From: a virus
Direction: 5' to 3' (one strand)
IMG/VR virus record: IMGVR_UViG_3300019458_000033
Coordinates: 1-64,000 of that record
Length of the DNA stretch: 64,000 nt
The notes beneath the pieces are model-generated. The model did not search any database and was not told the DNA's origin. It worked only from the letters and a program-made list of their open reading frames with translations. Positions 1,891-63,763 of this stretch are shown one piece after another. The position numbers and the translations under genes are program-made. Positions within the stretch are counted from its first letter, which is position 1, and each line of letters starts with the position of its first letter.

Positions 1891-2574
1891 TCAGTCCCAG
1901 AACTCGAAGCTGACGTGCTCGATCGTGAACGGCAGAGAGCCCTCAACCGCGGCCAGATTCAAAACCACCGAATCCTGGTAGAAGTAGATCCCACCGATCT
2001 GTGGCCGCTTCAGCTCGATGACCCGCTTGGAGTTATCGGCAGTTTTGGCCAGCAGTTGATGCCGCACCTGAGACGGCGGCGAGAAGGTCTCGACCTCGCC
2101 CGGCCCGGTCACCGCCTGCTCGACGGTAAAGATGACATCGCGCGGCGCGTCGCCCGGGTTGCCGGTCTTCACGGTGACAAAGATGCCCTTGAAGGTGCGG
2201 AAACGTGGACCGATCGACCAGGATGCCACAACCGTGTCGGAAGTGCTACATTCGCCTGACCCGATAATTCCGTGCTTGATCCCCAGGGCGCAAAGCTCAC
2301 CAGATTTAAAGGTCAGCCTCGCCTCGTAGTGGTCCTCGCGCGAGCGCACCTCGCCCATTGGCCCGACAGGGCCAACAGGCCCGGCTGGTCCTGGAGCGCC
2401 CTGGGGCCCGACGATCGACTGCCCCGCCGGCCCCCGTGGCCCGGTCGCGCCCGCCGGCCCTGCCGGGCAGGTGGCCGGGCAGGTTGGCCCCTTTGAGCCG
2501 GTCGAATTTGCGAATTCCGCAAAACCCAAAAGCGCCAAGGCGCAGACGATCACAAAACGTTCGGATCTTTTCAT
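1891..2574 (-). CDS. secreted collagen-like repeat protein
   Basis: Start MKRSERFVIVCALALLGFAEFANS looks like a signal peptide. A G-X-Y run follows (GPAGATGPRGPAG...[19 protein letters not shown]), then a globular C-terminus. ATGA overlap with the upstream gene at 2571-2574. Confidence 0.7.
   Translation of the reverse strand: MKRSERFVIVCALALLGFAEFANSTGSKGPTCPATCPAGPAGATGPRGPAGQSIVGPQGAPGPAGPVGPVGPMGEVRSREDHYEARLTFKSGELCALGIKHGIIGSGECSTSDTVVASWSIGPRFRTFKGIFVTVKTGNPGDAPRDVIFTVEQAVTGPGEVETFSPPSQVRHQLLAKTADNSKRVIELKRPQIGGIYFYQDSVVLNLAAVEGSLPFTIEHVSFEFWD
2353..2460 (-). repeat. collagen-like G-X-Y coding repeats
   Basis: Triplet-periodic Gly in the translation of the - strand gene. Confidence 0.7.
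2508..2522. repeat. palindrome family copy, 1 mismatch (TTGCGAATTCCGCAA)
   Basis: Lies inside the signal-peptide coding region of the - gene, where it reads FAEFAN. Confidence 0.7.
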
Positions 2575-3239
2575 GTCAGTCCAAGCTCCTTTTTGAGTTC
2601 GCGCATCAAGCGCAGGTTCTGTTCGGCCTTTTTGAGCCACGGCCCCACTCCTCGGCCCGCCCGCCAGTCCGCCGCCTCCATGAAGGCAATCCCGGCCCGG
2701 CGCGCGCATTCGCGGTCTTCGTCGCTGTCGCCTACCATCAGGCAGTCTTCCAGATGCACCACCCCGGCCTTCAAGCGGGTGATCACGTTCTGCATTCCGG
2801 CGAAAAGCATACCAGGATTGGGCTTGCGGAAGGCATTCGATTCCTCGTCGCCGGGGCAGATCAGGATGTCGTCAAACATAAAATCGGCCCGCCGGCCGTT
2901 CAAATCAAGCGCCGGCTTCGCCATCCGTCCAGTGCGCCGGGCGACACCGACCGCCATCTCCCAGGTCAAATCGCCCCGGGCCACCCCTTCCTGGTTCGAT
3001 ACCCCCACAATGCGCCAGTAAGCCGCCTTGAACCGGTCCATCATCGCCAACGCCTCCGGGTAGACCGCAACATCCTCGGGGCGGTTGCAAAACCCCGACG
3101 GATCGGTCGAATAACGCACCGTGCCGTCCAGATCCAGAAACAATAAATTCAAGCGTGGCGTACGGGCCATAAGTCTAGAAGTACAAAGGGCCAACTGGGC
3201 TCGCGTGGAAACCAGATTCTCGCTCATGGGACCCATCAT
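2571..3239 (-). CDS. HAD superfamily subfamily IIIA phosphatase (GmhB / polynucleotide 3'-phosphatase-like)
   Basis: HAD motifs are present in order: LFLDLDGT (I), GVSNQ (II), RKPNPGM (III), GDSDEDRECA (IV). An alternative start exists at 3170 (MARTPRL). Confidence 0.75.
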   Translation of the reverse strand: MMGPMSENLVSTRAQLALCTSRLMARTPRLNLLFLDLDGTVRYSTDPSGFCNRPEDVAVYPEALAMMDRFKAAYWRIVGVSNQEGVARGDLTWEMAVGVARRTGRMAKPALDLNGRRADFMFDDILICPGDEESNAFRKPNPGMLFAGMQNVITRLKAGVVHLEDCLMVGDSDEDRECARRAGIAFMEAADWRAGRGVGPWLKKAEQNLRLMRELKKELGLT

Positions 3240-3247
3240 AGCACAAA

Positions 3248-3276
3248 ATTATCAAATTCGGCTTGACATGTGACAT
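3248..3276 (-). promoter_or_regulatory. candidate sigma70-like promoter for the leftward genes
   Basis: On the - strand ATGTCA, 17 nt, GATAAT. The -10 ends about 8 nt before the ATG at 3239, which would give a near-leaderless mRNA. Confidence 0.35.
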
Positions 3277-3291
3277 TTTGGGCGGTAGGAT
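3263..3291 (+). promoter_or_regulatory. candidate sigma70-like promoter for the rightward genes
   Basis: TTGACA (3263-3268), 17 nt, TAGGAT (3286-3291). The -35 boxes of the two divergent candidates abut as TTGACA-TG-TGACAT. Confidence 0.45.
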
Positions 3292-3310
3292 GACTGCGGA
3301 AGTCGCAAAA

Positions 3311-3628
3311 ATGGAAGTCTCAAGTCAAGACCCCAACGGCCTGCGGATGTGGGCCATCGTCGAGGTGATGGGCCACCAGCGCTATGTCGGCGAGATGAGC
3401 GAGCAGGTCATCGCCGGACAAGGCTTCATCCGCGTCGACGTCCCCAAAACCGACGAGTTGCCGGCATTCACGAAAATCATCGGCCCTCAGTCGATCTACG
3501 CGATCACGCCAGTAGACGAGCAAATCGCTCGCGGCATGGTCGCCAACATCCGGGCACGCCCCATCGAGGTTTTTGAGCTCAGGAATCTGCTTCCAGCGGC
3601 GCAGCGCGACTTGGAATACGAATCATGA
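3311..3628 (+). CDS. hypothetical protein
   Basis: ORF 3263-3628 in track. ATG at 3311 is the first start downstream of the candidate -10; ATG at 3290 is an alternative. No motif recognised. Confidence 0.55.
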   Translation: MEVSSQDPNGLRMWAIVEVMGHQRYVGEMSEQVIAGQGFIRVDVPKTDELPAFTKIIGPQSIYAITPVDEQIARGMVANIRARPIEVFELRNLLPAAQRDLEYES

Positions 3629-4212
3629 TCGGCCTCTACGTCAAAGCGTGGCGCTCGCGGGAAAACTTCAGCCAGGCCGAGCTCTCCAAGCGCCTGCGCA
3701 ACCACGGCTGGCCGATCACCCAGTCGAAGCTGTCGCGGCTTGAGCTCGACGCCGAAAAAGGGATCGACCACCGGCTCGATTTCGACCAGATCGACGCCAT
3801 CTGCCGGGCAACCGCAGCGCCCAGGTGGGAGGTCTACTTCCACGCCGGCCTAATTCCTGTCGAGTTGCGGCAAACTAGTCCACTGCCGCTGGCCCCCGAT
3901 CCACTCTCGACCGCCCGCGCCAAAGTCGCCATGGCCATGCTCTATGCGGCCATGGGAAAGCCTGAGCTTGGCCCGGTGGTCAGCCCCGAGGTGGCGATCG
4001 AGGCTGGCCTGTGGCCGCCGCCTGAGACCACCGGCGCGCGCGCCGAACTAGAAGCCGATCTTGCTACGCGCGGCATCAGCCCGCCGAGCGCCGAGGAGCG
4101 GGCGCTCGCCGCCAAGGTGCGCGCCGTGCTGCCGGCCAGGCCGGAACCGGGCCCATCGGCCGTCGAGCCGGAGGCTGCGGCGGTGGATTTGAGGAAGCTC
4201 TACGGAGATTAG
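3625..4212 (+). CDS. XRE-family helix-turn-helix regulator
   Basis: N-terminus FSQAELSKRLRNHGWPITQSKLSRLE is a classic HTH_3 pattern. ATGA overlap with the upstream gene. Confidence 0.7.
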   Translation: MIGLYVKAWRSRENFSQAELSKRLRNHGWPITQSKLSRLELDAEKGIDHRLDFDQIDAICRATAAPRWEVYFHAGLIPVELRQTSPLPLAPDPLSTARAKVAMAMLYAAMGKPELGPVVSPEVAIEAGLWPPPETTGARAELEADLATRGISPPSAEERALAAKVRAVLPARPEPGPSAVEPEAAAVDLRKLYGD

Positions 4213-4216: not shown

Positions 4217-4741
4217 ATGATCCGCCGCCTGCTATTTGCCATCTCGACCGCCAATGCGCGCTGGCTCCAAAGCTACGGCCAGGCGCACGAGTTCGGCTAC
4301 ATCCACCGCAATTCGCTGCGCCTGGCGATTCAGAAGGCGACAGGGCTTCAGGGGGCGTTTGCGTTCTGGCGCACGGGCGATGAGGCGATTCGGCCGGGCG
4401 ACACGATGCGCATCGAGACAGAAGAGTTTGGGATGCTTGAGCTGCTGGTCGTGCGCTCGATCCAGACCGACCGCCACGGCACCTACGGAACCGCGGTGCC
4501 CTCGATCTGGCAGCAGCAGGCGGCAATGGAGGCGGCTTGGCAGGACTTCCGGCGACAAGCCGACAGGGAACTCGAAATGCTGCGGCAGGTGGTCTACGGG
4601 CTGGTCGCACAGTCGCCAGGATCGACCGTTACAGTGCCCTGGAGCTACTTCACCCAGCGCGAGCCGGTCGAGGTCGAGCTGATTCCCGACGGGGAAGGGG
4701 TGTTTGTGCGGGTGACGGCGGGCGAGGTGCGGCATGGATAG
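4217..4741 (+). CDS. hypothetical protein
   Basis: ORF in track, same strand as the operon, tight spacing. Confidence 0.6.
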   Translation: MIRRLLFAISTANARWLQSYGQAHEFGYIHRNSLRLAIQKATGLQGAFAFWRTGDEAIRPGDTMRIETEEFGMLELLVVRSIQTDRHGTYGTAVPSIWQQQAAMEAAWQDFRRQADRELEMLRQVVYGLVAQSPGSTVTVPWSYFTQREPVEVELIPDGEGVFVRVTAGEVRHG

Positions 4742-4910
4742 AGAAACGCTGGCGAAGGCCGCGCTGCTCACGGTCGCGTTAATCACGGGTTCCTTGCTGG
4801 GAATAGTAGAGAAGCAGCTAGGGCCTGAATTTGTCGCCCCGATGGGGTTTACCTGCCTGCTGGTCGCGGCCTCTGTTCTGTGCCGCAGTATCGGCTGGCC
4901 ATGGTTTTGA
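4734..4910 (+). CDS. small two-helix membrane protein (58 aa, below the track cutoff)
   Basis: My own translation: MDRETLAKAALLTVALITGSLLGIVEKQLGPEFVAPMGFTCLLVAASVLCRSIGWPWF. It overlaps the upstream stop by 8 nt and ends 1 nt before a palindrome copy. Confidence 0.4.
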   Translation: MDRETLAKAALLTVALITGSLLGIVEKQLGPEFVAPMGFTCLLVAASVLCRSIGWPWF

Positions 4911-4911
4911 C

Positions 4912-4926
4912 TTGCGGAATCCGCAA
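4912..4926. repeat. palindrome family copy, perfect (TTGCGGAATCCGCAA)
   Basis: Intergenic, 7 nt upstream of the ATG at 4934. Confidence 0.9.
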
Positions 4927-4933
4927 ATTTAAA

Positions 4934-5161
4934 ATGGATTTTGATAAAATCGTTGCTTTGGAATCTGGGGCAATCGTCAAGCTCCACGCCCATGGTGGAA
5001 AAATTATCGAGCGCCGAGTCGTGCGGGTTCACCAATTAAAAAAACATGGCAAGGTCTACGATGTGCGGCCCGAAATTGTCAACGAAGAAGAATGGCTGAA
5101 ACGCGGGAAGAAGTCTCGTGGTATCTGCTGGCCAGCAGATGACGTGGTCGCTGAAGTTTGA
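4934..5161 (+). CDS. hypothetical protein (75 aa), low-GC island
   Basis: MDFDKIVALESGAIV... The ATG follows the palindrome. The region is visibly AT-richer than its neighbours. Confidence 0.55.
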   Translation: MDFDKIVALESGAIVKLHAHGGKIIERRVVRVHQLKKHGKVYDVRPEIVNEEEWLKRGKKSRGICWPADDVVAEV

Positions 5162-5163: not shown

Positions 5164-5757
5164 ATGCCAACCTGGCTCAAACCCGACGAAGCGGCTCGAT
5201 ATCTTGATATCGAACCATCCGAGCTTGCGGAGTTGACCGCAAATGGAGAGGGCCCCAAGCACTACCGCAAGGGGCCGCTGGTCCGCTTCTCGATCGAGGA
5301 TCTCGATGCCTGGGTCGAGGCGGCGCTCGCCGACCAGACACCGGAGAACTCCACGGGCTGGGAGGCGGTCGCCGCCGGGACGATGAGCGCGGCCGGTGAG
5401 ACAAAGCCAGCCAAACAAGAGACGCCGGCGCGCGACCTGCGCGAGTTGTATATCGATCCCGAGACGGGCGAGCGGGTGATCGTACCAGCCCCTGAGGAAG
5501 TTGTTCAAGGCCTGCTCGGCCCCGATGGCCGTCCGGTCGATCGCAACGAAATACGGATCGCAACCCGAGGGCAGTTTGTGGGCGTGGGCGACTATGGCAA
5601 CGAGTTTGTGGCGCCGGACCCGACTGCCGGCATACCCCAGGAGCGGTTGGCTGGGACTGGACTAACCCCGCCGCACGTTGTGGAATCATGCGTAGAGGAC
5701 CAACAAGAGCAGCGCCGCCTGTGGACCGAGCGGATGTCGAGAGCTCCCGTCCGCTGA
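5164..5757 (+). CDS. excisionase/MerR-like (HTH_17) DNA-binding protein
   Basis: WLKPDEAARYLDIEPSELAELTANGEGPKHYRKGPLVRFSIEDLDAW matches the Xis/AlpA-type winged HTH pattern. Confidence 0.6.
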   Translation: MPTWLKPDEAARYLDIEPSELAELTANGEGPKHYRKGPLVRFSIEDLDAWVEAALADQTPENSTGWEAVAAGTMSAAGETKPAKQETPARDLRELYIDPETGERVIVPAPEEVVQGLLGPDGRPVDRNEIRIATRGQFVGVGDYGNEFVAPDPTAGIPQERLAGTGLTPPHVVESCVEDQQEQRRLWTERMSRAPVR

Positions 5758-5996
5758 TCGAGTGCGACGGGGTGGCTATTCGCGCGCTGCGGCGTCAGCT
5801 CGGGCTGACCCAGAACGAGTTTGCGCGCCAGATCGGCATCGCTCGCGAGACGCTGTCGCGGCTGGAGAACCTGAAATGGGCTCCCACCCGCGGCGTGCGG
5901 CGGCGCTTCTACGAGATTTGGGAAGTCGAGCAGGCGCGCCGCCAGCGGCTCCAGGACCCGCGGCACCGCGCCGTGATTGCGAGGCTGAATTTATGA
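5688..5996 (+). CDS. XRE-family helix-turn-helix regulator (start uncertain)
   Basis: IRALRRQLGLTQNEFARQIGIARETLSRLEN is an HTH_3 pattern. The ORF overlaps the upstream gene, so the true start may be an internal GTG near 5771. Confidence 0.6.
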   Translation: MRRGPTRAAPPVDRADVESSRPLIECDGVAIRALRRQLGLTQNEFARQIGIARETLSRLENLKWAPTRGVRRRFYEIWEVEQARRQRLQDPRHRAVIARLNL

Positions 5997-6558: not shown

Positions 6559-6573
6559 TTGCAACATCCGCAA
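6559..6573. repeat. palindrome family copy, degenerate (TTGCAACATCCGCAA, right arm intact)
   Basis: Starts 2 nt after the stop at 6556 and ends 23 nt before the ATG at 6597. Confidence 0.5.
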
Positions 6574-9200: not shown

Positions 9201-9215
9201 TTGCGGAATCCGCAA
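9201..9215. repeat. palindrome family copy, perfect
   Basis: Starts 2 nt after the stop at 9198 and ends 17 nt before the ATG at 9233. Confidence 0.9.
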
Positions 9216-9944: not shown

Positions 9945-10160
9945 ATGTCCCTGAAAAGGCGGGAGTTTTTGGCGGCGCTGGTCGGAGCGCCGCTGACTAG
10001 CGCAGAGTTGCGGAATCCGCGAATCATCGTATGGAAGCCTCGTTCACTTGGCGTGACGACAGGGCAGAGGCTTCTCGTTTTGCAGCAGTGGCGCAATGGG
10101 TACATCAGTCCAGGCCCGGCCGAACTATTTCAGTTTATGTCCACGCTCACTGTAGAATAG
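9945..10160 (+). CDS. small protein with twin-arginine (Tat)-like N-terminus, paralogue 1
   Basis: SD AAGGTGG precedes the ATG. N-terminus MSLKRREFLAALVGAPLTSAELRNPR. The 5' end is near-identical to 13649-13729. Confidence 0.6.
   Translation: MSLKRREFLAALVGAPLTSAELRNPRIIVWKPRSLGVTTGQRLLVLQQWRNGYISPGPAELFQFMSTLTVE
9957..9991 (+). repeat. 35-bp perfect direct repeat, copy A (partner at 13661-13695)
   Basis: AGGCGGGAGTTTTTGGCGGCGCTGGTCGGAGCGCC is identical at both sites. An 18-nt core also occurs at 13229-13246. Confidence 0.9.
10008..10022. repeat. palindrome family copy, 1 mismatch (TTGCGGAATCCGCGA)
   Basis: Inside the CDS, where it reads LRNPR. Confidence 0.75.
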
Positions 10161-10167: not shown

Positions 10168-12363
10168 GTGTACGACGCCGAGATCAACGAGCGGCGGCTG
10201 TTTAAGGCCGAGCAGGGTCTGGGGTTCAAGCTGACACGCTACGAACCCGGGGACTCGATCGACCGGGCCGCCGCCATCATCCGCAAGTACGACCCGCGTG
10301 CAAGACGCTGGAAGAATCCGCCCAATAAATCCGAGCACGAGTTCATCCTCAACGAGCGAACGCTGTGCCGGCATGACTTCCCATATTACACCCGCTACTG
10401 CCACGTCATCGACAAGGAATCCGGTCTAGTCCCCTACCGGCCATACAAGGCGCAGTGGATGCTCAACGAGTTTCGTGCCGAGCACGAGCGCGCTGGCATC
10501 GCAATGGAGTTCTTTAACCTCAAGGCGCGCCAGCTTGGGGTTTCGACCGATTCTGAGATGGTGGTCTCGCACCGGGCGCAGTTCGGCAAGTACCTGTATT
10601 GCCTGGTAGCCTCCGCCGACCCCGACAAGTCGAAAACGATGTCGGAAATGATGATCCGAAACTGGAAGGCGATGCCGTTTTTCCTTATGCCTGATCTAAC
10701 CTCGATTCGTAGCGGGGAGGAAATCCAGTTTGGCAACCAGGATGTAACAATCGCGATTGAGTGGCTCAACCAGAAGTCGGGCTTGGCGCGCGGCCAGACG
10801 CCGCACGTGGCCCACGTCAGTGAGGTCTCAATGTGCGAAGACCCGGAGGACAAGATCGACGCATCGCTAATGCGCGCCATGCACCCGTCGGCCAAGCTCT
10901 ACGCGATGTATGAATCGACCGCCAACGGCCAAGGAAACTGGTACCACGATACCTGGAAAACTACCAAAAAAGAGTATGCGGCAAGGCGCTCCAGGCTGCG
11001 GCCGGTCTTTCTGCCATGGTTTGTCGGAGATGACAAGTATCCGACGCCGGCATGGCTGAGAGCACAGCCTATCCCGAGCGATTGGAAGCCGCACGAGCTG
11101 ACCATCCGGCACGCCGAGCGCGCCGCGGTGCATGTAAAGAATACGCCGTATCTGTGGAAGCGACTTGGCCTGGGCTGGAAAATGCCGGTCGAGCAGATGT
11201 GGTTCTGGGAATGCACGCGAGAGACACACCGCCGAAATAAAACTCTAAACGTTTTCTATCAAGAGTTGTGCTCTGACGACATTGAGGCTTTTCAACTGGC
11301 GCTGACCTCGGTTTTCGACACTGAGCAAATCGCGCTATTCCTGGAGCATCAGAGGGAGCCGCTTCAGATTTGGGGCCTGCGCGCCTCCCCGGACGTAATT
11401 CCACCGCGTAACCAGCCCCAGGATTACGAGGTTGAAAAGGGAAGCGTGCGGCCAGGCAACGAGCCAAGGACGCTGACTTGTCCCAACGGCCAGAAGTTCG
11501 ATATGGTGCCAATTAACTACGAGCAGGCCAAAGCCGACCCGATGGGCAAAATCTTTATCTGGGAAGAGGCGAAACCAGGGAATCTCTACGGCATTGGCTG
11601 CGACCCAGGGCACGGCGTCGGCGAAGACCGCTCGGTAATCGAAGTCATGCGTAAATCGACCATAGCTCGTTGCCCAGGACTGGTTGCCGAATACGCAAAT
11701 GACCGCATCGGCGCTTCCGATATGTTGCCATTCGCCTATGCGCTAGGTGTGCTCTACACGACGACGGTGGAGGACTACCTGCGGCAGCCCAAATTCGTTG
11801 TCGCCGTTGACACCAGCGGCGACACACTGATGAAGGCGTTGATTCGGTTGGGGATGACCAATCAGCACATTTGGGTAACCTACGATCGGTACGGCCGCCA
11901 GATTACCAATAACCCGCGCCTGGGAGTGCTCGGGGTGCATTGGTTTCGCGAGAAGGCGACCGAGAAAATCGTCAAATCGTTGCGAGACTACCTGATCGAG
12001 GTCGATTCACCGTGGTTCCTCGAGGAGATGGGGACGTTAGGGTACGACCCTGGAAAAGATCGCTACGAAGCAAGCGCCCAGGCGCACGACGACCGATTCA
12101 TGGCAGCGGCTTATGTCCATCTTTCGCTTCACGTTGATGATCCAGAGCCGGCCAACTCCGCCTTTGGGCTGCGCAAGATCGAGGCCGAGGTGCCTATCGA
12201 GCAACGCTACGCCCGCTTCCCAGGAGACGCCTTCGCCTCGTCGCTGCCGCTGGGCGATGAGATGCGGGCCTATATGGACCGCTTTATGGGCGGCGCGCCA
12301 CCGCGCGCGCCCCAGCAGGCTAGCCGCGTCAGCTACATAAAGACAAAGCCGCCCGCATCGTGA
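10168..12363 (+). CDS. terL: terminase large subunit
   Basis: KARQLGVSTD Walker-A-like ATPase segment, CLVASAD, and a C-terminal RNaseH-like nuclease part (GIGCDPGHGVGEDRSVIEV, AHDDRFMAAAY). Lies upstream of the portal gene. GTG start is uncertain. Confidence 0.8.
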   Translation: MYDAEINERRLFKAEQGLGFKLTRYEPGDSIDRAAAIIRKYDPRARRWKNPPNKSEHEFILNERTLCRHDFPYYTRYCHVIDKESGLVPYRPYKAQWMLNEFRAEHERAGIAMEFFNLKARQLGVSTDSEMVVSHRAQFGKYLYCLVASADPDKSKTMSEMMIRNWKAMPFFLMPDLTSIRSGEEIQFGNQDVTIAIEWLNQKSGLARGQTPHVAHVSEVSMCEDPEDKIDASLMRAMHPSAKLYAMYESTANGQGNWYHDTWKTTKKEYAARRSRLRPVFLPWFVGDDKYPTPAWLRAQPIPSDWKPHELTIRHAERAAVHVKNTPYLWKRLGLGWKMPVEQMWFWECTRETHRRNKTLNVFYQELCSDDIEAFQLALTSVFDTEQIALFLEHQREPLQIWGLRASPDVIPPRNQPQDYEVEKGSVRPGNEPRTLTCPNGQKFDMVPINYEQAKADPMGKIFIWEEAKPGNLYGIGCDPGHGVGEDRSVIEVMRKSTIARCPGLVAEYANDRIGASDMLPFAYALGVLYTTTVEDYLRQPKFVVAVDTSGDTLMKALIRLGMTNQHIWVTYDRYGRQITNNPRLGVLGVHWFREKATEKIVKSLRDYLIEVDSPWFLEEMGTLGYDPGKDRYEASAQAHDDRFMAAAYVHLSLHVDDPEPANSAFGLRKIEAEVPIEQRYARFPGDAFASSLPLGDEMRAYMDRFMGGAPPRAPQQASRVSYIKTKPPAS

Positions 12364-13662: not shown

Positions 13663-14008
13663 GCGGGAGTTTTTGGCGGCGCTGGTCGGAGCGCCAGCGG
13701 CTAGCGCGGCCGGTTTGCGGATTCCGCAAATGGTCATGAAGACGCGCGCCATTGGGCCTACTGACCTTAGCCTGGCCGAGGTTCTCAACGACGGAATAAA
13801 TCCGAGTTGGGATGGGACGATCGAGGCGGCATACGCCGAAGCCGCGATCGGTGCCGGTGAGCCGGATCTGGGCTGGATGAACGCCGAGGCCATGCGGCAC
13901 TTCGAAGACTCTTTCTATCGGGTAGAGCCCACATTGAACGATATCAATCGATTCACCGTGCGCGAGATAAATAAGTCGGTGGTTGACGAGATTTTCGGCC
14001 GTGCCTGA
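13649..14008 (+). CDS. protein with Tat-like N-terminus, paralogue 3
   Basis: N-terminus MSLRRREFLAALVGAPAASAAGLRIPQMVMKTRAIGPT. The continuation resembles paralogue 1 (IIVWKPRSLGVT). Confidence 0.6.
   Translation: MSLRRREFLAALVGAPAASAAGLRIPQMVMKTRAIGPTDLSLAEVLNDGINPSWDGTIEAAYAEAAIGAGEPDLGWMNAEAMRHFEDSFYRVEPTLNDINRFTVREINKSVVDEIFGRA
13661..13695 (+). repeat. 35-bp perfect direct repeat, copy B
   Basis: Identical to 9957-9991. Confidence 0.9.
13715..13729. repeat. palindrome family copy, perfect (central T)
   Basis: Inside the CDS, where it reads LRIPQ. Confidence 0.9.
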
Positions 14009-14024
14009 CCAGACACCCAGCTAC

Positions 14025-16130: not shown

Positions 16131-16145
16131 TTGCGGAATCCGCAA
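16131..16145. repeat. palindrome family copy, perfect
   Basis: Junction reads TGA-GTG-palindrome-ATG: 3 nt after the portal stop and 0 nt before the ATG at 16146. Confidence 0.9.
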
Positions 16146-16418: not shown

Positions 16419-16471
16419 CGTCGTGTCTTAATTGGTTCAGGCGGACGGCCCTTCCAAGGCTTACCGACTTG

Positions 16472-16509
16472 CCTCAATGGGATTTATTCCTGTTGAGGCT
16501 TTTTCTTTT
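16472..16509 (+). terminator. weak hairpin plus T-tract
   Basis: CCTCAA-15 nt-TTGAGG followed by CTTTTTCTTTTG. Confidence 0.3.
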
Positions 16510-17316: not shown

Positions 17317-17331
17317 TTGCGGAATCCGCAA
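17317..17331. repeat. palindrome family copy, perfect
   Basis: Intergenic, 22 nt after the stop at 17294 and 70 nt before the scaffold ATG. Confidence 0.9.
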
Positions 17332-20128: not shown

Positions 20129-20143
20129 TTGCGGAATCCGCAA
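20129..20143. repeat. palindrome family copy, perfect
   Basis: Starts 4 nt after the stop at 20124. Confidence 0.9.
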
Positions 20144-38114: not shown

Positions 38115-38129
38115 TTGCAAATTCCGCAA
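38115..38129. repeat. palindrome family copy, 2 mismatches (TTGCAAATTCCGCAA)
   Basis: Intergenic, 27 nt before the ATG at 38157. Confidence 0.55.
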
Positions 38130-41120: not shown

Positions 41121-44100
41121 ATGCCCACTGGTGCCGAGCGCGAATTCTACGAATCCCTGAAAAAGACGCGGCTTCTACCATCTGAAGCTCGCGAGATTTG
41201 GGACGCCCGCTCGGATCAGTCCAAACTCCAGCAGGCTCTCACCCGCTACCGGAACTACATCCCCGACGCCCTCCGCGGCGAGATCAACGAGCGCGCCCGC
41301 AACACAGCACTTGAGATTACGGGCTCCTCGCCCGCTGGCCGCGCCGCGCGGCTGATGTCCACCTTCGGTATCGAGGCAAAGCCCGAGCCCGTTCAGCCCG
41401 CCCCCGGCGCGCCGATGACATTCGGCGAGATCGGCCGCTCGGTCGCCGAGGGCCTGCCGATCAAACCCACTATCACCGGCAAGACGCCCGGCGGTGCGCT
41501 GGGCCAGTTCGCCCTGGGGACCGAAGAGCGCCCGACACTACTGGGTGGGGCGCTGCGCTCCAGCCGCGCGATCGAGCCACTGAGCGAAGTTCCCGGCATG
41601 CTGCTTGAGCCGGCGGTCGATGTTACTGCCCTGACGCCAGAGCGGGGCGCGGCGCGCGGAGTTGCGGAATTCGCAACCGGGATGGCATCGCCTGCTGGCC
41701 TTGCGCTTGGCGCTCTGGGCCTGCCAGCCATTGGCGCAACCGCCGGCTCACGGCTGCTGTCGCAGATGGCGGCGCGGCTGGGCTTGGGCGCATCGCTGGC
41801 CTACGAGGCTGGCAAGCGCGTTCCTGGGTTCTTCGAGCGACTCAATGAGATCGTCAAGCCTGGCAGCGATCCTGAACTCGTCAAGATCCAGCAGGAAGAA
41901 ATGACGCAGGCGTTGCTGGAGAGCGCGACAGGCCTCGGCCTGATCCGCTCGGGTCTTGGGCCGCTGCGAAGCGTCGCGCGCGCCGGGGCTGCTCCTAAAG
42001 CCGCCGCTGGCGTAGCTGGCGCGCGCGCAGGGCTGCCGCCTCCACGCCCGCCGGGCATTGAGGCTCCCAGACCCCTAATCGAGCCTCCTGGGCCACGCAC
42101 GGCGACCGGACGCAGGCCGCCTGCCGGTGCGCCGCGCGCCATGCCTGGCCAGCGCCCACCGGCCGCGCCACGCTTCCGGCCCGACCAGCCGGTGTTGCGC
42201 CGCGATCTGCCGCCCATGCCCGGCAAGAGTCCATTCCCGCCGCTGCCCACGGGTGCGCCAGGGATGCCGCCGATGCGCCAGCGGCCCAAGGGCTTCCTGC
42301 CCCGTGGCGCGTTTCAGATGGGGCCCGCAGCGGGCGTGCCGCAGGACCTCGAAGCGACTGGCGGGGCGCCGCCGCGCGCGCTCGACTTCACGCCTTCGGA
42401 CATGGCAAAGCCGGGCGGCTCGCAGCCGCTGTCGCGCGGCCGGCCGGTTTGGATGAAGGCGGGCGAGTCGTCGGTAATGGGTGAGTGGGCTGTCGTGCGC
42501 AACCGGGACCTGGTGACGTCGAACTCGTCGGCGCTGGTGGAGAACCCCGACTATCCGCAGTTTCTCCAGAACCGCGATCGTTCGTCGCGGGCTTCAGAGG
42601 CCTCGATCCGCCAGATTCAGTCGCGGCTCGACCCGGAGCAGTTGGGCGAAAGCTATCTGGCGTCGGATGGCGCGCCTGTTATTGGCGGCGACATGGTGGT
42701 CGAGGCGGGCAACGGCCGCACAATCGCCCTGCGGCGCGAGTACGACTCCGAGACGCCGCGCGCGGCGCGCTACAGGGACTGGCTGCTGAAAAACGCCGAG
42801 CGCTTCGGCGTCGACCCCAAGGCCATCGAGAGCGTCCCCGATCCTCAGCTTGTGCGAATCCGCTCGGATGCGAACCCGATCGACCGGATGGAGTTTGCCA
42901 GGTTGGCGAACGTGTCGCAGGTCGCCCAACTCTCCCCCGCCGAGCTTGCCTCGCAGGACGCCGCACGGATGCCGCCGCGGCTGCTTGAGTTGTTCGACAC
43001 CGAATCCGAGGCCGGGCTGCTGGCCGAATCAAACCGTGACTTTGTGCGCGGCTTCGCCGAGACGCTGGTCGAGCCGTCCGAGCAGCCTGGGTTCATGGCC
43101 GCTGGCGGGGAGCTATCCTCGCAAGGGCTGACGCGCGTGCGCAACGCGATCATCGCCAAAGCCTACGGCGACCCGCAGATTCTGGCGCGAGTTGCGGAAT
43201 CCGCAAACGACGAGCAGAAAAACATCCTGGGCGCGCTGGTTGGCGCGGCCCCGAGAATGGTCTATTCCCAGAAGGGCATCGCCGACGGCGTGTTTCATGA
43301 CCTGCCGATTCACCAGGACGCGGCGCGCGCGGCAAACCTGATGACGGAGCTTGCCGGCCGCGGCTTCACGGTCGAGGATTTCGTCCGCCAGCAATCGCTA
43401 TTTGCGACAGGCCGCGAGTTGACGGCCGAGCAGGAAGCCATCGCGCGCTACTTCGAGGCAAATGCCCGTTCGCCGCGCAAGCTGCAGGCCTATCTCGACA
43501 ACTACAACGAGGCGCTGGTGGCGGCCGGCAACCCGCGGCAGAGCGCCATCTTTGGCGGTCGGCCGCCATCCAGGGTTGACCTGCTCGAAGCCGCGCGGCA
43601 GGTGACGGAGGCCGAGTATGCAGAAAAAGCCAGACAACGCAAAGGGCTCAGGGAAGCCGAAGCCAAACCCGGTCGTCGTGCGCAGGTTGGTCAGAAGGAT
43701 GCAGGCCTTAAAGCGCGCCTCGGCGACCGCCAACTCCAGCCGTTCCAAGGCTCATTCAAAAACCCCGTAGACCTGATGCAGGGCGCGGACATGGTGTACC
43801 GCAAGCCGCGCAAGAATCGGCCGGGCATGTTGTTCGTCAATGAAGGCGGCTCAGCGCTTGTCGAAATCATGTCAGGCCACATGGGCTCGGGCCAGTTGCT
43901 CGGAGCGCAGATTCCTGAGAAAGCCTCCCGCTCGATGCTCAAGAGGATGGACGAGGTTATCGGCAGGGAAACGACACAGCTATTGCCCTGGGTGCGTGAT
44001 AAATTGCAACTGATGCGTCTTGAGATGCAGCGCGCGCTGGACGATAACGGACAGATTCTCGTGGCACGTGCCGATCGCCCGATGGGCGAAGTTAAAGAGA

Positions 44101-50251: not shown

Positions 50252-51003
50252 CTCGCCTCCTGAGCCTCCTGAATTTGCGAAATCCGCAACTCCTGCTGGT
50301 AGCCCCTGGCCAGCGCCGCCTCGGCCTCGGCCTCATTCTGGCGATCGCGGTAGTAGGCGACAATCCATCGCATCTCGGCTTCCGAGCGCGGGTTGCGCAT
50401 ATTGCTGACCACGCCTTGGAGTTCCTCGGGGATCGCCTCCGGCTTCCCCAGCACTTCGGCCAGCCACTGGTTGATCTTGGCGATGGCCTGCTGCCCAGTC
50501 GCGACCTGGTCGGCAGGCTCGAACAGCGCACCCACCGGATCCACCGCTCCGGCAATCAACTTGGGCGTGTAGCGGCTGTAGATGGTCACAAAGCCAGCCT
50601 CGGCCGGCGTCTCCTGGAACTCGTTGGGTGCGCCGCCGAAAAACTTGACGCCTTCCTCAGTCAACTTGGGCCCGGCAATCAGCGCGCCGATCTGCCAGTC
50701 GAGCAGCTTGTCGTTGTTGGCGAGTAGCCCGCCTGCGAGCGAGGTCGCAAAGCCCAGGATCTGCAGCCCGCGGATCACCCGCTGCTTGCGCGAGCGGTAG
50801 TTTGCCGTCGAGCCAAGTTGGGTCACCTTGGCGTTACGCACCGGGGCGATACCGTTGGCGGTCAGCAGGTCCCAGGCCTGATCGTAGTCCATGCGCTTAC
50901 AGGACCACTCGCTGATATCGGACAGCGCAGGCGTGGGCTGCTGGGAGCAGGTCTGCGGCCAGGCAATGGCTTGGAATAGGACAATGGCGAGTAGGAATTT
51001 CAT
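50248..51003 (-). CDS. secreted hypothetical protein
   Basis: N-terminus MKFLLAIVLFQAIAWPQTCSQ looks like a signal peptide. Confidence 0.6.
   Translation of the reverse strand: MKFLLAIVLFQAIAWPQTCSQQPTPALSDISEWSCKRMDYDQAWDLLTANGIAPVRNAKVTQLGSTANYRSRKQRVIRGLQILGFATSLAGGLLANNDKLLDWQIGALIAGPKLTEEGVKFFGGAPNEFQETPAEAGFVTIYSRYTPKLIAGAVDPVGALFEPADQVATGQQAIAKINQWLAEVLGKPEAIPEELQGVVSNMRNPRSEAEMRWIVAYYRDRQNEAEAEAALARGYQQELRISQIQEAQEAR
50275..50289. repeat. palindrome family copy, 1 mismatch (TTGCGAAATCCGCAA)
   Basis: Lies in the 3' end of 50248-51003 (reads ELRISQ), 23 nt before the start at 50251. Confidence 0.7.
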
Positions 51004-51547: not shown

Positions 51548-51562
51548 TTGCGGATTCCGCAA
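51548..51562. repeat. palindrome family copy, perfect
   Basis: On the - strand the junction reads TGA-AAG-palindrome-A-ATG. Confidence 0.9.
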
Positions 51563-54381: not shown

Positions 54382-54396
54382 TTGCGGATTCCGCAA
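54382..54396. repeat. palindrome family copy, perfect
   Basis: Lies in the 193-nt intergenic region, 51 nt upstream of the start at 54330. Confidence 0.9.
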
Positions 54397-58105: not shown

Positions 58106-58376
58106 TGTCAATACTCCTGATAATGCCTGTCAGTTTGTCTCGGAATTCTGTCAATTGCTGGCGGCTGCTGAACCGCAGCAGTGTGCGCACCGAGTTTGCG
58201 CTACCGTGGATGAGTAGATGCACCTCGGGGGAGCCGGCGCGCGGTCGCCACAGCCGCCACGACTGAACCTTGTGCATGTAGAGCTCGCGCTGGATGGACG
58301 GGGCGTATTTGAGAATTTGGTCCATGCCGGCCGTGGTCGTCGGCAGGCTGCCGAATGACTTCAGGATCCACTTCAT
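58080..58376 (-). CDS. hypothetical protein sharing an N-terminal segment with RecT
   Basis: AGAGG SD. N-terminus MKWILKSFGSLPTTTAGMDQILKYA... It overlaps the RecT start by 26 nt. Confidence 0.45.
   Translation of the reverse strand: MKWILKSFGSLPTTTAGMDQILKYAPSIQRELYMHKVQSWRLWRPRAGSPEVHLLIHGSANSVRTLLRFSSRQQLTEFRDKLTGIIRSIDNGKLSSDT
58302..58339 (-). repeat. 38-nt perfect direct repeat, copy 2
   Basis: See 58031-58068. Confidence 0.9.
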
Positions 58377-59426: not shown

Positions 59427-59804
59427 TCACCCCTCCTCGTTTGCGGATTCCGCAAATTTGGTCTCGATCCGCTCCAGCACATCAAGCAGCCGATAGCCGT
59501 TGATGCGGGCGGTCGGGCCGCAGTGCTGCAGCCACTCGGCCAACAGCGGCAGTGCGAGGCGCTCGGCCTTGGCCGGGTCCCCCAAATAGTCTTCAAGGAT
59601 CTGCCGGCAGATGCACCAGCCTTCGTGGTTGTAGCCGGTGCCCGTGGTGATACCTTGGTCGCCGAGGTCGACAAACTTGATGGCGAGTTCCTGCTTGCGG
59701 ATCGGCGGCTCAAGCTCGCCGCTAGTGAGGTCCGTATTCTCTCGCCACAGTCGGCGCTCGTGCTGGCTGGAGCGGATCTCGTAGGTTGTGGTCTCGTCTC
59801 GCAT
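59427..59804 (-). CDS. hypothetical protein
   Basis: ORF in track. The C-terminus KFAESANEEG is encoded through a palindrome copy. Confidence 0.55.
   Translation of the reverse strand: MRDETTTYEIRSSQHERRLWRENTDLTSGELEPPIRKQELAIKFVDLGDQGITTGTGYNHEGWCICRQILEDYLGDPAKAERLALPLLAEWLQHCGPTARINGYRLLDVLERIETKFAESANEEG
59441..59455. repeat. palindrome family copy, perfect
   Basis: Lies in the 3' end of 59427-59804, 16 nt before the start at 59424. Confidence 0.9.
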
Positions 59805-62062: not shown

Positions 62063-62077
62063 TTGCGGAATCCGCAA
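62063..62077. repeat. palindrome family copy, perfect
   Basis: Lies in the 310-nt intergenic region, between the terminator and the candidate promoter. Confidence 0.9.
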
Positions 62078-62242: not shown

Positions 62243-62261
62243 TCGGATTCGGGAGGGGCTG

Positions 62262-63239
62262 TTACTGGGTCAGGTCGTAGCGGCGGGTCCGGGTCGTCGC
62301 GGCGGCGTCCAGGGCTGCCTTGATCTCGGCCATATTGCGGGCGGTGGCGTCTCGCAGGGCCTCGTTCGAGCGCAGGTCCTTAGGGCTGACGCCCTGGAGC
62401 ATCTCGCGGGCCTGGTCAACGAGTCCGGCCAGTTCTGAATCATTGGTCACGTTGCGCAGGGGGAAGGTCTCGAGGTACTCGGCCATGTTGGCAACGAGTG
62501 AATCGCGAAAGACCTTGGGCTTGCCGTCGTCGCCCGGAGTGAGCCGCTCGGCCATATGCTCGACGAGTTCGGCGAAGCCGGCGCGGAGCAAGTCCCGGAT
62601 CTCGTCGGAGGCCTGGCGCCATGCGGCGGCCGTCTTCGCCTTTTCGCGCTCCCAAACGTCGCGGCTGATGCCCTGTAGGGCGTCGGGGGCTCCCAGGGTC
62701 ACGTAGCGCCACTCGATGCGAAACAGCCGCTGTACGGCGCTTTGATCGACGTAGACGGCGCCGTCAGGGGAGATCTGGGCTTGCGGGTAGTCGGCGGGGT
62801 TGAACTGGCTCCTAAGCCGCGCGCGGGCCGCTGCCACTAGTCCCGGATAGGCGCTCGCAAACAGCGCAGCGAGGTCGGAAAGCTGTACTTGGTGGGACTG
62901 CAAGCGCTGGTCGACGTCTTCGACCATGGCCACGGGTAGCACGTAGACGCCAGCCCTAAACAGCGAGGGAACCTGCAGCGCCTTCTTGTAGATCCACTGG
63001 CGTAGCTGGCCGTTCAGGGTCTCGATAGCCTTGAGCTCTTCGGAGTCGAAAAGCTCTTTCGACAAGCTGAGCATATCGCGGTCGGCGTCGGTCTCGATCT
63101 GGTCAAGCCGGCCCTTGCGGCGCTTACCGGGGCTGGTGATGGTGAGCGAGAGCAAGACAGTTGCCTTATCAAGGCGGGGCTCGGCGGTGGTCGCACCGTT
63201 TGGCGCGGTCGCCGCCCATAGCGGCTGATTCTGAGTCAT
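62262..63239 (-). CDS. hypothetical early protein (325 aa)
   Basis: ORF in track, followed by a clear terminator. Confidence 0.65.
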   Translation of the reverse strand: MTQNQPLWAATAPNGATTAEPRLDKATVLLSLTITSPGKRRKGRLDQIETDADRDMLSLSKELFDSEELKAIETLNGQLRQWIYKKALQVPSLFRAGVYVLPVAMVEDVDQRLQSHQVQLSDLAALFASAYPGLVAAARARLRSQFNPADYPQAQISPDGAVYVDQSAVQRLFRIEWRYVTLGAPDALQGISRDVWEREKAKTAAAWRQASDEIRDLLRAGFAELVEHMAERLTPGDDGKPKVFRDSLVANMAEYLETFPLRNVTNDSELAGLVDQAREMLQGVSPKDLRSNEALRDATARNMAEIKAALDAAATTRTRRYDLTQ

Positions 63240-63322
63240 TTGGCGGTTTATCTCCTGTTTCTGGGGCGCGTAGGGCGCTCCGGGGCGGGCCCTGGGGTCA
63301 AGGCCCGCTGGCGGAGAGTCCT

Positions 63323-63514
63323 TTAGGCGTGTGGCTCGATGTTGAGTCCTCCGTCTTCGCAGAGGGCCTCCTCAGCGATGCGAATATGGGCCAACACGGT
63401 CTCGGTAGCCCTGTGTGCTTGGCTGCTGTACCCGATATCCCTGATTCGCTCAAGGGCAATCCGAAGTAGATCCACGCGCTTGGTGAGCATCAGTAGTCGG
63501 TGTGCCTTCTTCAT
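63323..63514 (-). CDS. hypothetical protein
   Basis: ORF in track; ATGA-type overlap with the upstream gene. Confidence 0.45.
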   Translation of the reverse strand: MKKAHRLLMLTKRVDLLRIALERIRDIGYSSQAHRATETVLAHIRIAEEALCEDGGLNIEPHA

Positions 63515-63714
63515 TGCCCAGCCTTCGCTTTCTCGCCTTCGTGGGCGTGTTCGTGGTGGTGGGCGTGGCCCTGTTTGCGTTTGCGCTCGGATTTGCCAAG
63601 GGTCGCCACGGCGCGGAAGAGCCCCTCGGCTGATGCGTGGTTAGGCCCGCTGATCTTGTCAGCGCTGGCACGGATGCTGCCGTCTGGCAGGATATCGATA
63701 ATGATCTCGTCCAT
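63511..63714 (-). CDS. small protein with His-rich C-terminus
   Basis: C-terminus KQGHAHHHEHAHEGEKAKAGQ. Confidence 0.5.
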   Translation of the reverse strand: MDEIIIDILPDGSIRASADKISGPNHASAEGLFRAVATLGKSERKRKQGHAHHHEHAHEGEKAKAGQ

Positions 63715-63748
63715 AGGTGTGCTCCTGTGTGGTTAGTCCTGATTTGGT

Positions 63749-63763
63749 CTGCGGAATCCGCAA
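63749..63763. repeat. palindrome family copy, 1 mismatch (CTGCGGAATCCGCAA)
   Basis: Intergenic, 34 nt upstream of the start at 63714. Confidence 0.75.

Follow-up and report, generated by a model that had tools for sequence, protein, structure and literature searches.

Among the short repeats that are dispersed over phage genomes, only the stoperators of the Cluster A mycobacteriophages have, to our knowledge, a worked-out mechanism. Here we describe a perfect palindrome with a 15-bp core, TTGCGGAWTCCGCAA, that is scattered over 64,000 nucleotides of viral DNA (positions 1 to 64,000 of the IMG/VR record IMGVR_UViG_3300019458_000033; this whole stretch is called the window below). The nearest described counterpart is the 17-bp palindrome 5'-TGTTCGGNNNCCGAACA of the Cluster O mycobacteriophages, Corndog and its relatives, which is present in 31-34 copies (PMC4351075). 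The 34 copies of Corndog are divided among positions between open reading frames (ORFs; 14 copies), near the 5' ends of ORFs (10) and deep in ORFs (10); the centre of the repeat has no meaningful orientation, and the repeat is not closely linked to translation starts (PMC4351075). Cluster O phages have no integrase or parAB but encode proteins with ParB-like domains, and the authors predicted a dimeric DNA-binding protein with a role other than the control of initiation, the function being given as unknown (PMC4351075). A search of papers from 2015 to 2026 found no functional study of this repeat.

The palindrome of the window is similar to the Cluster O repeat in architecture and in distribution. 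Both can be written as 17 bp with 7-bp inverted repeats around a 3-bp A/T-rich spacer, and both are found in tens of near-invariant copies over the whole genome and in both transcription directions, divided in roughly thirds between intergenic positions, 5' ends and the interior of ORFs. In both cases there is no convincing orientation of the central base, no integrase or parAB has been found, and proteins with ParB-like domains are encoded. However, the window motif is another sequence in another phage lineage and host phylum, with about 21 copies rather than 31-34. Its association with start codons is statistically strong, and lineage-specific variants occupy orthologous places, which is unreported for the very similar Cluster O genomes. 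Being unrelated in sequence and lineage, the window palindrome is analogous rather than homologous to the Cluster O repeat, and the comparison yields no mechanism. The initial annotation of the window, which knew of no described phage motif with this sequence, missed this analogue; as to the sequence, a full-text literature search found no relevant paper, in agreement with that annotation.

Cluster A stoperators, of the L5 gp71 and Bxb1 gp69 type, are sets of 20-30 short conserved dispersed sites, mostly in intergenic gaps within operons (PMC9283540). They are 13-14 bp long, asymmetric and strictly oriented with transcription. A two-domain repressor binds them as a monomer, they silence the prophage in temperate phages, and their consensus co-evolves with the phage's own regulator (PMC9283540). 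The window motif is comparable in site number, dispersion, use of short intergenic gaps and lineage-specific consensus. It differs in being a perfect palindrome whose orientation bias is limited to the A at +1 (p = 0.02); no integrase or ParA was found in the scanned ORFs, and helix-turn-helix (HTH) proteins, any of which would at most be a candidate repressor, are present. The variant of one relative, L116, is closer to stoperators, being asymmetric with seven plus-strand matches in the orientation of transcription. The start-associated sequences (SAS/ESAS) of Cluster K are reportedly 13-bp asymmetric elements that contain the ribosome-binding site (RBS) at a fixed 3-8 bp from the start codon. 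They are likewise repeated motifs tied to gene starts, whereas the window motif is palindromic, is placed 0-78 nt upstream or within the gene, and is separate from the RBS.

Dispersed palindromes are also present on IncP-1 plasmids, whose operator sets are considered here together with chromosomal parS. The KorB operators of RK2 are 13-bp odd palindromes (TTTAGCSGCTAAA) in 12 dispersed copies, and the KorB OB and KorA OA sets consist of odd or even palindromes of 12-16 bp in 7-12 copies, recognized by a single global regulator that the element itself encodes; in KorB, a defined HTH adjoins the ParB domain. The window resembles these systems in having dispersed palindromes on a mobile genome and in encoding a ParB-superfamily domain. 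On the other hand, these are plasmid systems, no HTH was found in the ddrB-ParB protein of the window, and the reader of its motif is putative. T4-type PeSL cassettes combine an early promoter with a terminator-like stem-loop, and the RNase III sites of T7 are long imperfect hairpins without shared sequence. Both are repeated intergenic stem-loop elements at gene boundaries of lytic phages, but the window element is a short palindrome, identical in sequence between copies, that lacks both a T-tract and an associated promoter. The phenomenon has precedents; its mechanism we infer.

In the window, TTGCGGAWTCCGCAA is present in 12 perfect copies, all at the starts listed in the initial annotation, and in no copy in 100 dinucleotide-preserving shuffles. 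At two or fewer mismatches there are 20 copies versus 0.54 expected, and the largest value in any shuffle was 3. The same family was recovered independently by a repeat finder (18 members, 22 nt). The feature is real and strongly non-random, and the previous claim of a selected element far above chance holds. The count of 20 at two mismatches takes in a match at 11684 and leaves out the copy at 6559, which has three mismatches. For the placement statistics, the set of 20 sites consists of the 12 perfect copies, the six one-mismatch copies (2508, 10008, 34670, 41662, 50275 and 63749, again as listed before), 38115 with two mismatches, and 6559; 11684 was left out. The match at 11684..11698 (two mismatches), which was not in the initial list, lies within the terminase gene and encodes VAEYAN, and VAE[YF]A[NS] is gap-free in every relative examined. 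Because this terminase peptide is conserved in all relatives, the match is judged a chance coding near-match and is probably no functional copy. One further copy, CTGCGGAATCCGCAA, is situated in the approximately 4 kb of the circular genome beyond the window (L431:2677), 53 nt upstream of a minus-strand gene, bringing the total to about 21. The gap in the distribution reported to begin at 20 kb is real (20-33 kb), and a second large motif-free stretch extends from 43 to 50 kb.

Oriented by local transcription, the consensus is (T)TTGCGGA-W-TCCGCAA(A), a dyad that can be read as 7-1-7, or as 7-3-7 when written TTTGCGG-AWT-CCGCAAA. The left and right arms are equally conserved, and the half-site centres are about one helical turn apart, as they are in lambda-type HTH operators. 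The central base is A or T in every copy. A central A in 9 of the 12 perfect copies had been counted correctly, but the directional role that it was taken to hint at is not significant, since A is on the transcribed strand at 13 of the 20 sites (p = 0.26). The base 3' of the motif on the transcribed strand is A at 19 of 20 sites, whereas the mirror T on the 5' side is present at 12 of 20 (Fisher p = 0.02). Over 40 nt of flank, conservation is limited to this +1 A and the -1 T. Longer flanks are common to some copies (63749 with L431:2677, and 4912 with 54382). Eight variants in a single arm would give G-U (five) or A-C (three) on the transcribed strand, which does not discriminate between DNA and RNA as the recognized form.

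The sites are concentrated at gene boundaries, an association that the initial annotation had missed. Of the 20 site centres, 16 fall in the interval from -90 to +80 nt around a start codon, where random placement gave a mean of 4.2 and at most 13 in 20,000 trials. Eleven sites are wholly intergenic, with coding sequence making up 95% of the genome (mean 0.82 and at most 6 in the same number of random trials). The other nine are in 5' signal-peptide coding (4), in the last codons of the upstream gene (2) and deep in genes (3). A common layout is a stop codon, 1-4 nt, the motif, 0-47 nt and a start codon (4912, 6559, 9201, 16131, 20129, 51548). The distance from the end of the motif to the start codon ranges from about 0 to 78 nt (0, 0, 1, 7, 16, 17, 23, 23, 27, 34, 47, 51, 70 nt, and others), with separate RBS sequences between the two. 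Four copies (2508, 10008, 13715, 34670) are within the next gene, their centres 47-73 nt past the start, and these are exactly the cases in which the upstream gene abuts or overlaps the start. The copies at 33158, 41662, 43192, 34670 and 2508 have a common phase, xTT GCG GAW TCC GCA Axx, and thus encode [VF]-A-[EDN]-[SF]-A-[NT]. Because sites are biased to start codons and intergenic gaps, and enter genes near the 5' end only where neighbours abut, the element is wanted at gene boundaries and is accommodated in tolerant coding sequence where needed.

Two of the in-gene copies are next to another repeat. A 59-nt sequence is present three times (9945-10003, 13210-13268, 13649-13707) and encodes a Tat-like N-terminus, MSL[KR]RREFLAALVGAP.. 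or MQFSRRKFLAALGLAP..., with which three small paralogous ORFs near the terminase and portal genes begin; the palindrome is right after the signal in two of the three. Twin-arginine-type signals on phage proteins are unusual.

About 50 related loci were collected through major-capsid homologues from Logan, JGI, ENA and IMG/VR, with about 21 kb sampled in the motif-bearing relatives. The window motif is in none of these capsid-found loci, but three of them have a dispersed motif of their own. L119 (IMGVR_UViG_3300042196_000161) has TCCGCAAAWTTTGCGGA at seven sites, L116 (JGI contig Ga0679468_0000599, 67.7 kb) has GTGCAAAACTTGCGAA at nine sites with three or fewer mismatches, and L153 (IMGVR_UViG_3300031576_000036; 40% capsid identity) has the palindrome GGAAGCSGCTTCC at nine sites; no dispersed palindrome was found in L154, the sister of L153. 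Capsid comparison makes L116 and L119 sisters (68% identity) and places them in one group with the window phage and L117 (ERR1883820_18564). In L116 the motif is asymmetric, with 16 nt conserved over its nine sites including non-symmetric positions; seven plus-strand matches (0-3 mismatches) are co-oriented with transcription, and the two minus-strand matches have 2-3 mismatches. Gene starts are again favoured in these relatives: five of six good L116 sites are within -50 to +70 nt of a start by the JGI gene calls, and for L119 the association has P = 0.02 with crude gene calls.

When the 15-mers of the window and L119 are aligned in register, they have GC at positions 3-4 and 12-13 and A at 7 in common, and they differ only at four symmetric pairs (1/15, 2/14, 5/11 and 6/10), in each case by transitions that preserve the dyad. 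In a set of 37 sites drawn from five genomes, both members are changed in five of the eight dyad pairs, and complementarity is retained in 89% of cells; the observed covariation is reached by none of 500 shuffles, and sliding the register destroys the signal. The motifs are exchanged at orthologous places. Upstream of the scaffold-like gene, the window phage (17317), L116 (8939) and L119 (8954) each carry their own motif and L117 carries none, and the portal module shows the same pattern. In an orthologous signal-peptide gene of L116 and L119, the motif at codons 3-8 encodes VQILRT in one phage and SAKFAL in the other. Different motifs at orthologous positions, with differing encoded residues, amount to concerted evolution of a set of sites that is selected as nucleic acid. 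The tail genes are too divergent from those of the relatives to align across the intragenic copies. The L119-type 17-mer is also present at least seven times in a 101-kb viral contig, IMGVR_UViG_3300014348_000112 (L166, L177, L178, L185, L187, L189), where each copy is part of a longer, 25-bp palindrome, AAATCCGCAAATTTTGCGGATTT, that in every case stands 8-12 nt before AAGGAG and a start codon.

Outside the window phage, the 17-mer TTTGCGGAWTCCGCAAA behaves as an isolated sequence. IMG/VR contains it in six contigs among the matches listed, once each, and the three Acidobacteriaceae matches are one orthologous coding site (DLRNPQM in an amidohydrolase-like gene). Among bacterial and archaeal genomes (one for each of 185,579 species) at least 120 stretches have the 17-mer, each as a single exact copy, and 116 of the 120 stretches listed have a single site for the 15-mer core at one mismatch or fewer. 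In JGI metagenomes, 110 of the 117 stretches among the matches listed have a single core site at this threshold and three have 2-4 exact 17-mers; those inspected are a short tandem array (L317) and, in a contig of low G+C content (L349), a repeat present twice, and none of the 117 listed resembles the window. A host repeat of the REP type can thus be rejected, as the 17-mer is almost always single-copy among the viral, genome and metagenome matches listed, although the host was not identified. With this limit, the earlier view that the motif is phage-specific stands, and so does the statement that no mobile-element genes flank the copies, no transposase or RAYT-like gene being present in the scanned ORFs. 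In two unrelated contigs the same 15-mer is arrayed in tandem over a short distance, as four copies spaced 18-33 nt from each other in L006 (IMGVR_UViG_3300013131_003009: 4056-4145) and as five copies with a 65-nt period in L317 (Ga0065721_10010896: 72-345).

Several other identities can be set aside. The motif is no intrinsic terminator: A follows the stem at 19 of 20 sites, there is no T-tract on the sense strand (as had been noted from the start), and a terminator scan flags only 9216-9200, which is antisense. Canonical intrinsic terminators, with 12-bp and 10-bp stems and T-tracts, are found elsewhere, at 16471-16499 (+) and 62244-62218 (-), and these two strong examples show that the host uses ordinary terminators. 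The GANTC at the centre, to which attention had been drawn, is incidental. GANTC occurs 236 times versus 224 expected and is absent from the motifs of L119, L116 and L153, and no methyltransferase is among the scanned ORFs, so a CcrM target is rejected. Half-sites (TTGCGGA/TCCGCAA) outside the palindromes number 15 versus about 8 expected and show no pattern that would suggest a Chi-like function. A sigma54 element or a fixed -10 element is not supported, as flank conservation stops at -1 T and +1 A, and no known RNA family was matched in Rfam.

Taken together, these observations are best explained, in our tentative and still quite uncertain view, by dispersed double-stranded DNA sites for a phage-encoded sequence-specific protein that would serve as operators or roadblocks at gene boundaries. 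One protein, probably dimeric, would recognize the palindromes on double-stranded DNA; bound at gene boundaries it would be an operator or a roadblock and would set which segments of the two long transcription blocks are expressed. It would work like mycobacteriophage stoperators or the KorA/KorB operator sets of IncP plasmids, but with a symmetric site. Sequence-specific recognition by a protein is favoured over a purely structural hairpin, because the copies are identical in sequence and the L116 motif is conserved with almost no hairpin stability. Two sites are placed as operators might be, 4912 in the spacer of a promoter match and 38115 in a divergent intergenic region. A dimeric HTH operator comparable to stoperators was one of three hypotheses in the initial annotation, and by this indirect evidence it is the best supported of them; the RNA hairpin is weakened, and a role in genome organisation or packaging is neither supported nor contradicted.

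The leading putative binder is the XRE/Cro-like protein at 5721-5996. The initial annotation had listed two XRE-type regulators and one Xis-type regulator in this region; the HTH_3 match (5721-5996) and the HTH_17 match (5164-5757) are solid, whereas 3625-4212 stays below the Pfam cut-off. In the L119 phage, homologues of both the XRE and the HTH_17 gene lie in synteny ahead of the terminase gene. The closest XRE relative, and the only close one in 5.8 billion proteins, is 68% identical and is encoded on a 2.1-kb contig, L429, in which the HTH_17 gene again accompanies the XRE gene in synteny. In L429 the position orthologous to 4912, immediately in front of the ATG of an orthologous gene of 75 aa, retains a window-type copy, CTGCGGAATTCGCAA. 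For the recognition helix, the predicted sequence is RET[LI]SR both in the window phage and in L429, and FVSVCR in the L119 phage, which has the other motif. This pattern of helix and motif is consistent with the XRE protein as the reader. A search of IMG/VR with the XRE protein of the L119 phage, encoded at L186:10711-10953, matched only itself.

A number of points weigh against a symmetric dimer of this kind, or against the XRE protein in particular. The excess of A at +1 over its mirror T, and the consistently asymmetric, transcription-oriented motif of L116, would not be predicted for a symmetric dimer. The correlation of helix with motif comprises three sequences and is confounded by their overall divergence. 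The promoter-like match at 4907-4935 is not conserved at the orthologous site of L429, and the clear XRE promoter of the L119 phage carries no motif; an autoregulated XRE promoter was rejected for these reasons. A promoter-like match coincides with only 1 of the 20 sites, and therefore most sites cannot act on initiation. There is no sign of lysogeny, an integrase and a partition ATPase being absent from the scanned ORFs and from the Pfam hits of the remaining approximately 4 kb, and therefore a lysogenic stoperator role is unlikely. No such motif was seen in the sampled DNA of L117, L120, L161, L163, L164 or the cultured Tunturi_1, and the trait is patchy among close relatives. In the 46 kb sampled of the 101-kb contig, no protein was detectably common with L119 or the window; either a reader gene in the unsampled DNA moves horizontally, or the reader is a host factor. 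Finally, any tie of a protein to the motif, that of the XRE candidate included, is putative. That the reader is a protein acting on DNA, that it is the XRE protein, and that it affects transcription are steps that we infer.

Two alternatives would place the function in RNA or in a phage-specific transcription system. A stem-loop between cistrons, with a stem of 6-7 bp and AAU or AUU as its loop, might be recognized by an RNA-binding protein or endoribonuclease with sequence specificity and might segment and stabilise polycistronic mRNAs; or it might gate translation of the next gene, which would be coupled to melting of the hairpin. Folded as RNA, the palindrome of the window would form a stable hairpin with a 7-8 bp stem and a 3-nt loop (-7.9 to -9.3 kcal/mol, z = -2.8 to -4.2), the L119 motif has -8.9 kcal/mol, and the palindrome of the 101-kb contig, with its fixed spacing to AAGGAG and ATG, would form an 11-bp stem of -14.3 kcal/mol. 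Many copies are 1-4 nt past a stop codon and 0-23 nt before the next start, where a terminating ribosome would melt them. The +1 A runs with transcription, as does the L116 motif, and most single-arm variants (5 of 8) would retain a G-U pair. However, the L116 motif has almost no hairpin stability (-2.4 kcal/mol, z = 0.08), its predicted fold is not even the expected hairpin, and its sequence is conserved nonetheless, while a structural element needs no identical sequence at 20 places. Three variants give A-C, the central base has no significant strand preference in the window and the opposite tendency in L119, the distance to the start varies over 0-78 nt with other copies within genes, and neither an Rfam match nor a candidate RNA-binding protein or RNase was found. 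Such an RNA element is therefore rather unlikely. Promoter elements for phage-specific transcription are more doubtful still, and we regard them as very unlikely. They could be hairpin promoters like those of the virion RNA polymerase (vRNAP) of N4, which have a 5-7 bp stem and a 3-nt loop, a geometry that the palindrome fits, or activator sites like the MotA boxes of T4, where the activator redirects the host RNA polymerase. About 20 copies upstream of genes resemble T7 promoters (about 17) in number and position, and the flanks are oriented with transcription. Yet the sites are symmetric, a start codon 0-7 nt past the motif leaves in several cases no room for a transcription start and a leader, there is no conserved -10-like element at a fixed distance, and no RNA polymerase or sigma-like gene was detected in the four largest ORFs by Pfam, PHROGs or PDB sequences, although very divergent ones could escape.

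Readers other than a regulator of the phage, or no reader, are the remaining possibilities. A global transcription factor or nucleoid protein of the host could be recruited by the phages, the motif differences then reflecting different hosts. The L119-type 17-mer in the 101-kb contig, in sampled parts without proteins common to L119 or the window, would fit this idea, and so would the fact that no phage protein is tied to the motif; recruitment of CtrA by alphaproteobacterial phages is a precedent, CtrA boxes having been noted in phage genomes (PMC9437464). We nevertheless consider a host factor quite unlikely: the 17-mer is single-copy in every bacterial genome stretch among the matches listed, the Acidobacteriaceae matches are a coding coincidence (LRNPQ in the amidohydrolase-like gene), no cluster like a host regulon was seen among the matches listed, and a shared regulator gene could be in the part of the 101-kb contig outside the sampled 46 kb. 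An equally improbable reader is a ParB-superfamily protein, for which the palindromes would be parS- or OB-like loading or recognition sites in genome-wide silencing, DNA internalisation or organisation, and not operators of the classical kind. The 2133-aa protein at 41121-47522 does have a ddrB-ParB domain (E = 1e-27), two copies are within its own giant gene, the sites are like the dispersed KorB operators of IncP plasmids, and proteins with ParB-like domains are likewise encoded by the Cluster O phages that carry the analogous 17-bp palindrome (PMC4351075). On the other side, no HTH or other DNA-reading domain was detected beside the ParB domain, and the bias to gene starts is not predicted. 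In polyvalent proteins, moreover, ddrB-ParB domains are usually interpreted as effectors resembling nucleases or NTPases. A repeat of the REP/MITE type, small and either mobile or derived from the host, that has spread without a function of its own might account for the patchy distribution among close relatives and for the longer flanks that some copies have in common. But it is not dense in any genome, metagenome or viral stretch among the matches listed, there is no transposase or RAYT-like gene in the scanned ORFs, copies are in frame within genes, and orthologous positions are kept between phages with different motifs, which random insertion would not predict; this explanation is highly improbable.

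The genome in which the palindromes are embedded is that of a divergent tailed phage, with a portal gene (13983-16127), a major head protein gene (18407-19519), an SU10-type adaptor and a terminase-like protein of 731 aa. It has a G+C content of about 0.61. Transcription is from the plus strand over about 3.3-49 kb and from the minus strand over 49-64 kb and 1.9-3.2 kb. The minus-strand block encodes an AAA/SMC-like ATPase, a weakly RecT-like protein, a metallo-beta-lactamase-fold protein, VRR-NUC and HNH nucleases and a weakly O-like replication initiator. With a length of approximately 67,988 bp, the genome is either circular or permuted, and the 3,988 nt beyond the window contain one motif copy and an AAA ATPase. 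Identical genomes are in public assemblies (Logan SRR7811943, ENA ERZ27251176), the Logan contig being identical to the window. Among 50,697 deposited phage records, megablast found no nucleotide match of the window; the nearest cultured relatives are phages of Tunturiibacter (Acidobacteria), with 28% portal identity, and the clade is uncultured and probably soil-borne. Neither the scanned window ORFs nor the precomputed Pfam hits of the remaining approximately 4 kb revealed an integrase, a partition ATPase, an RNA polymerase, a sigma factor, a DNA methyltransferase or a transposase, and no tRNA genes were found.

The 2133-aa ORF (41121-47522, +) has its ddrB-like ParB domain at residues 451-581 and a C-terminal glycine-zipper-like segment; the protein, for which no PDB sequence match was found, probably resembles an injected 'polyvalent' protein. 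Other genes of the window encode a PAPS-reductase-like protein (8440-9198, +; PHROG E = 3e-46), an RNA-ligase-1-like protein (5993-6556, +), and two HNH endonucleases and a VRR-NUC nuclease, located among 38485-38916 (+), 49521-49874 (-) and 48844-49365 (-). The terminase-like gene of L117, the closest relative with a long contig, has an intein with a LAGLIDADG domain (L117 693-3905), and the window copy is without it. Divergence seems to be far greater in the early/replication block than in the structural block; among 5.8 billion clustered proteins, the weakly RecT-like protein of 380 aa (56963-58105, -) has itself as its sole match. Repeats of other kinds are also present. A 15-nt periodic tandem repeat (56558-56923, 17 overlapping copies) is within the gene of a pentapeptide-repeat protein (56395-56943, -; Pfam E = 7e-29). 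An exact 38-nt direct repeat (58031-58068 and 58302-58339, 271 nt apart) spans the start of the RecT-like gene and the upstream gene. A 64-nt direct repeat with 89% identity (51028-51091 and 52360-52423) is at the 3' ends of two minus-strand genes and gives both proteins the same Pro/Lys-rich C-terminal tail. The palindrome copies and the candidate reader genes are collected in Table 1.

Table 1. Copies of the palindrome in the window, candidate reader genes and related sequence features.
Feature	Coordinates	Strand	Match	Context
Palindrome copy	2508..2522		1 mismatch, TTGCGAATTCCGCAA	about 52-66 nt within the 5' end of minus-strand gene 1891-2574; Sec signal-peptide coding, reads ..GFAEFANS..
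Palindrome copy	4912..4926		perfect	intergenic; 1 nt past stop of 4734-4910, 7 nt ahead of ATG 4934
Palindrome copy	6559..6573		degenerate, 3 mismatches, TTGCAACATCCGCAA	intergenic; 2 nt past stop 6556, 23 nt ahead of ATG 6597
Palindrome copy	9201..9215		perfect	intergenic; 2 nt past stop 9198, 17 nt ahead of ATG 9233
Palindrome copy	10008..10022		1 mismatch	codon ~22 of ORF 9945-10160 (N-terminus Tat-signal-like, MSLKRREFLAALVGAP..); phase 0, LRNPR
Palindrome copy	13715..13729		perfect	codon ~23 of ORF 13649-14008 (paralogous Tat-like N-terminus), reads LRIPQ; just upstream of portal module
Palindrome copy	16131..16145		perfect	3 nt past portal stop 16127; adjoins ATG 16146 of next called gene
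Palindrome copy	17317..17331		perfect	intergenic; 70 nt ahead of ATG 17402 (scaffold-like gene)
Palindrome copy	20129..20143		perfect	intergenic; 4 nt past stop 20124, 47 nt ahead of ATG 20191
Palindrome copy	33158..33172		perfect	codon 873 of 1164-aa gene 30541-34035; phase 1, F-A-D-S-A-N
Palindrome copy	34670..34684		1 mismatch	codon ~14 of gene 34630-37755, Sec signal peptide MRKLLRLALVALAFANSANA (..LAFANSANA); phase 1
Palindrome copy	38115..38129		2 mismatches	divergent intergenic, between minus-strand start 38044 and plus-strand ATG 38157; 27 nt ahead of the latter
Palindrome copy	41662..41676		1 mismatch	codon 181 of 2133-aa gene; phase 1, V-A-E-F-A-T
Palindrome copy	43192..43206		perfect	codon 691 of 2133-aa gene; phase 1, V-A-E-S-A-N
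Palindrome copy	50275..50289		1 mismatch	last codons of minus-strand gene 50248-51003; 23 nt upstream of RBS and ATG 50251 of next minus-strand gene
Palindrome copy	51548..51562	-	perfect	intergenic; 3 nt past stop of 51566-52351, 1 nt ahead of ATG 51546
Palindrome copy	54382..54396		perfect	intergenic; 51 nt upstream of ATG 54330 (-), weakly O-like replication-initiator gene
Palindrome copy	59441..59455		perfect	last codons of 59427-59804 (-); 16 nt upstream of RBS and ATG 59424
Palindrome copy	62063..62077		perfect	long intergenic gap in minus-strand block; downstream of terminator 62244-62218, ~147 nt upstream of start 61915
Palindrome copy	63749..63763		1 mismatch, CTGCGGAATCCGCAA	34 nt upstream of ATG 63714 (-); extended flanks common with L431:2677
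Window palindrome (double-stranded DNA)			TTTGCGGAATCCGCAAA	L119-type counterpart TCCGCAAATTTTGCGGA
XRE/Cro-like HTH_3 protein	5721..5996	+	37.9 bits vs cut-off 23	91 aa
HTH_17 (MerR/excisionase-like) protein	5164..5757	+	solid Pfam match	PHROG 'excisionase and transcriptional regulator'; second candidate
HTH_31-like N-terminus	3625..4212	+	weak, below Pfam cut-off	third candidate
Sigma70-like promoter match	4907..4935	+	TTGACT-17-TAAAAT, 10/12	best in region; 17-nt spacer = motif copy 4912

Beyond the initial annotation, this analysis contributes three points: the association with gene starts, the evidence against a host repeat, and the exchange of motifs between lineages at orthologous places. 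The palindromic repeats of Cluster O have been unexplained since 2015, and the phages described here offer an advantage over the Cluster O genomes in that related phages of the same architecture have different motifs at orthologous positions. These swaps make the identity of the reader tractable, through a gene that co-varies with the motif and through comparison of binding to the phage's own probe and to the probe of its sister. A broader speculation, unlikely as it stands, is that the window palindromes and the Cluster O repeats belong to one unrecognised control system of non-temperate tailed phages that uses private 15-17 bp dyads at gene boundaries. The reader would then be a dimeric HTH protein or a ParB/KorB-like clamp that times or insulates the expression of segments or marks the phage's own DNA, and the site set and the specificity of the reader might switch together between sister lineages, as the four symmetric swaps between the window and L119 could suggest. 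If the mechanism proves ordinary, for example a Cro-like repressor with many sites, the motif would still help to annotate gene boundaries in such genomes. If the reader is indeed a global regulator of a lytic phage, these palindromes would represent a second, symmetric type of genome-wide operator set and would provide orthogonal pairs of proteins and sites.

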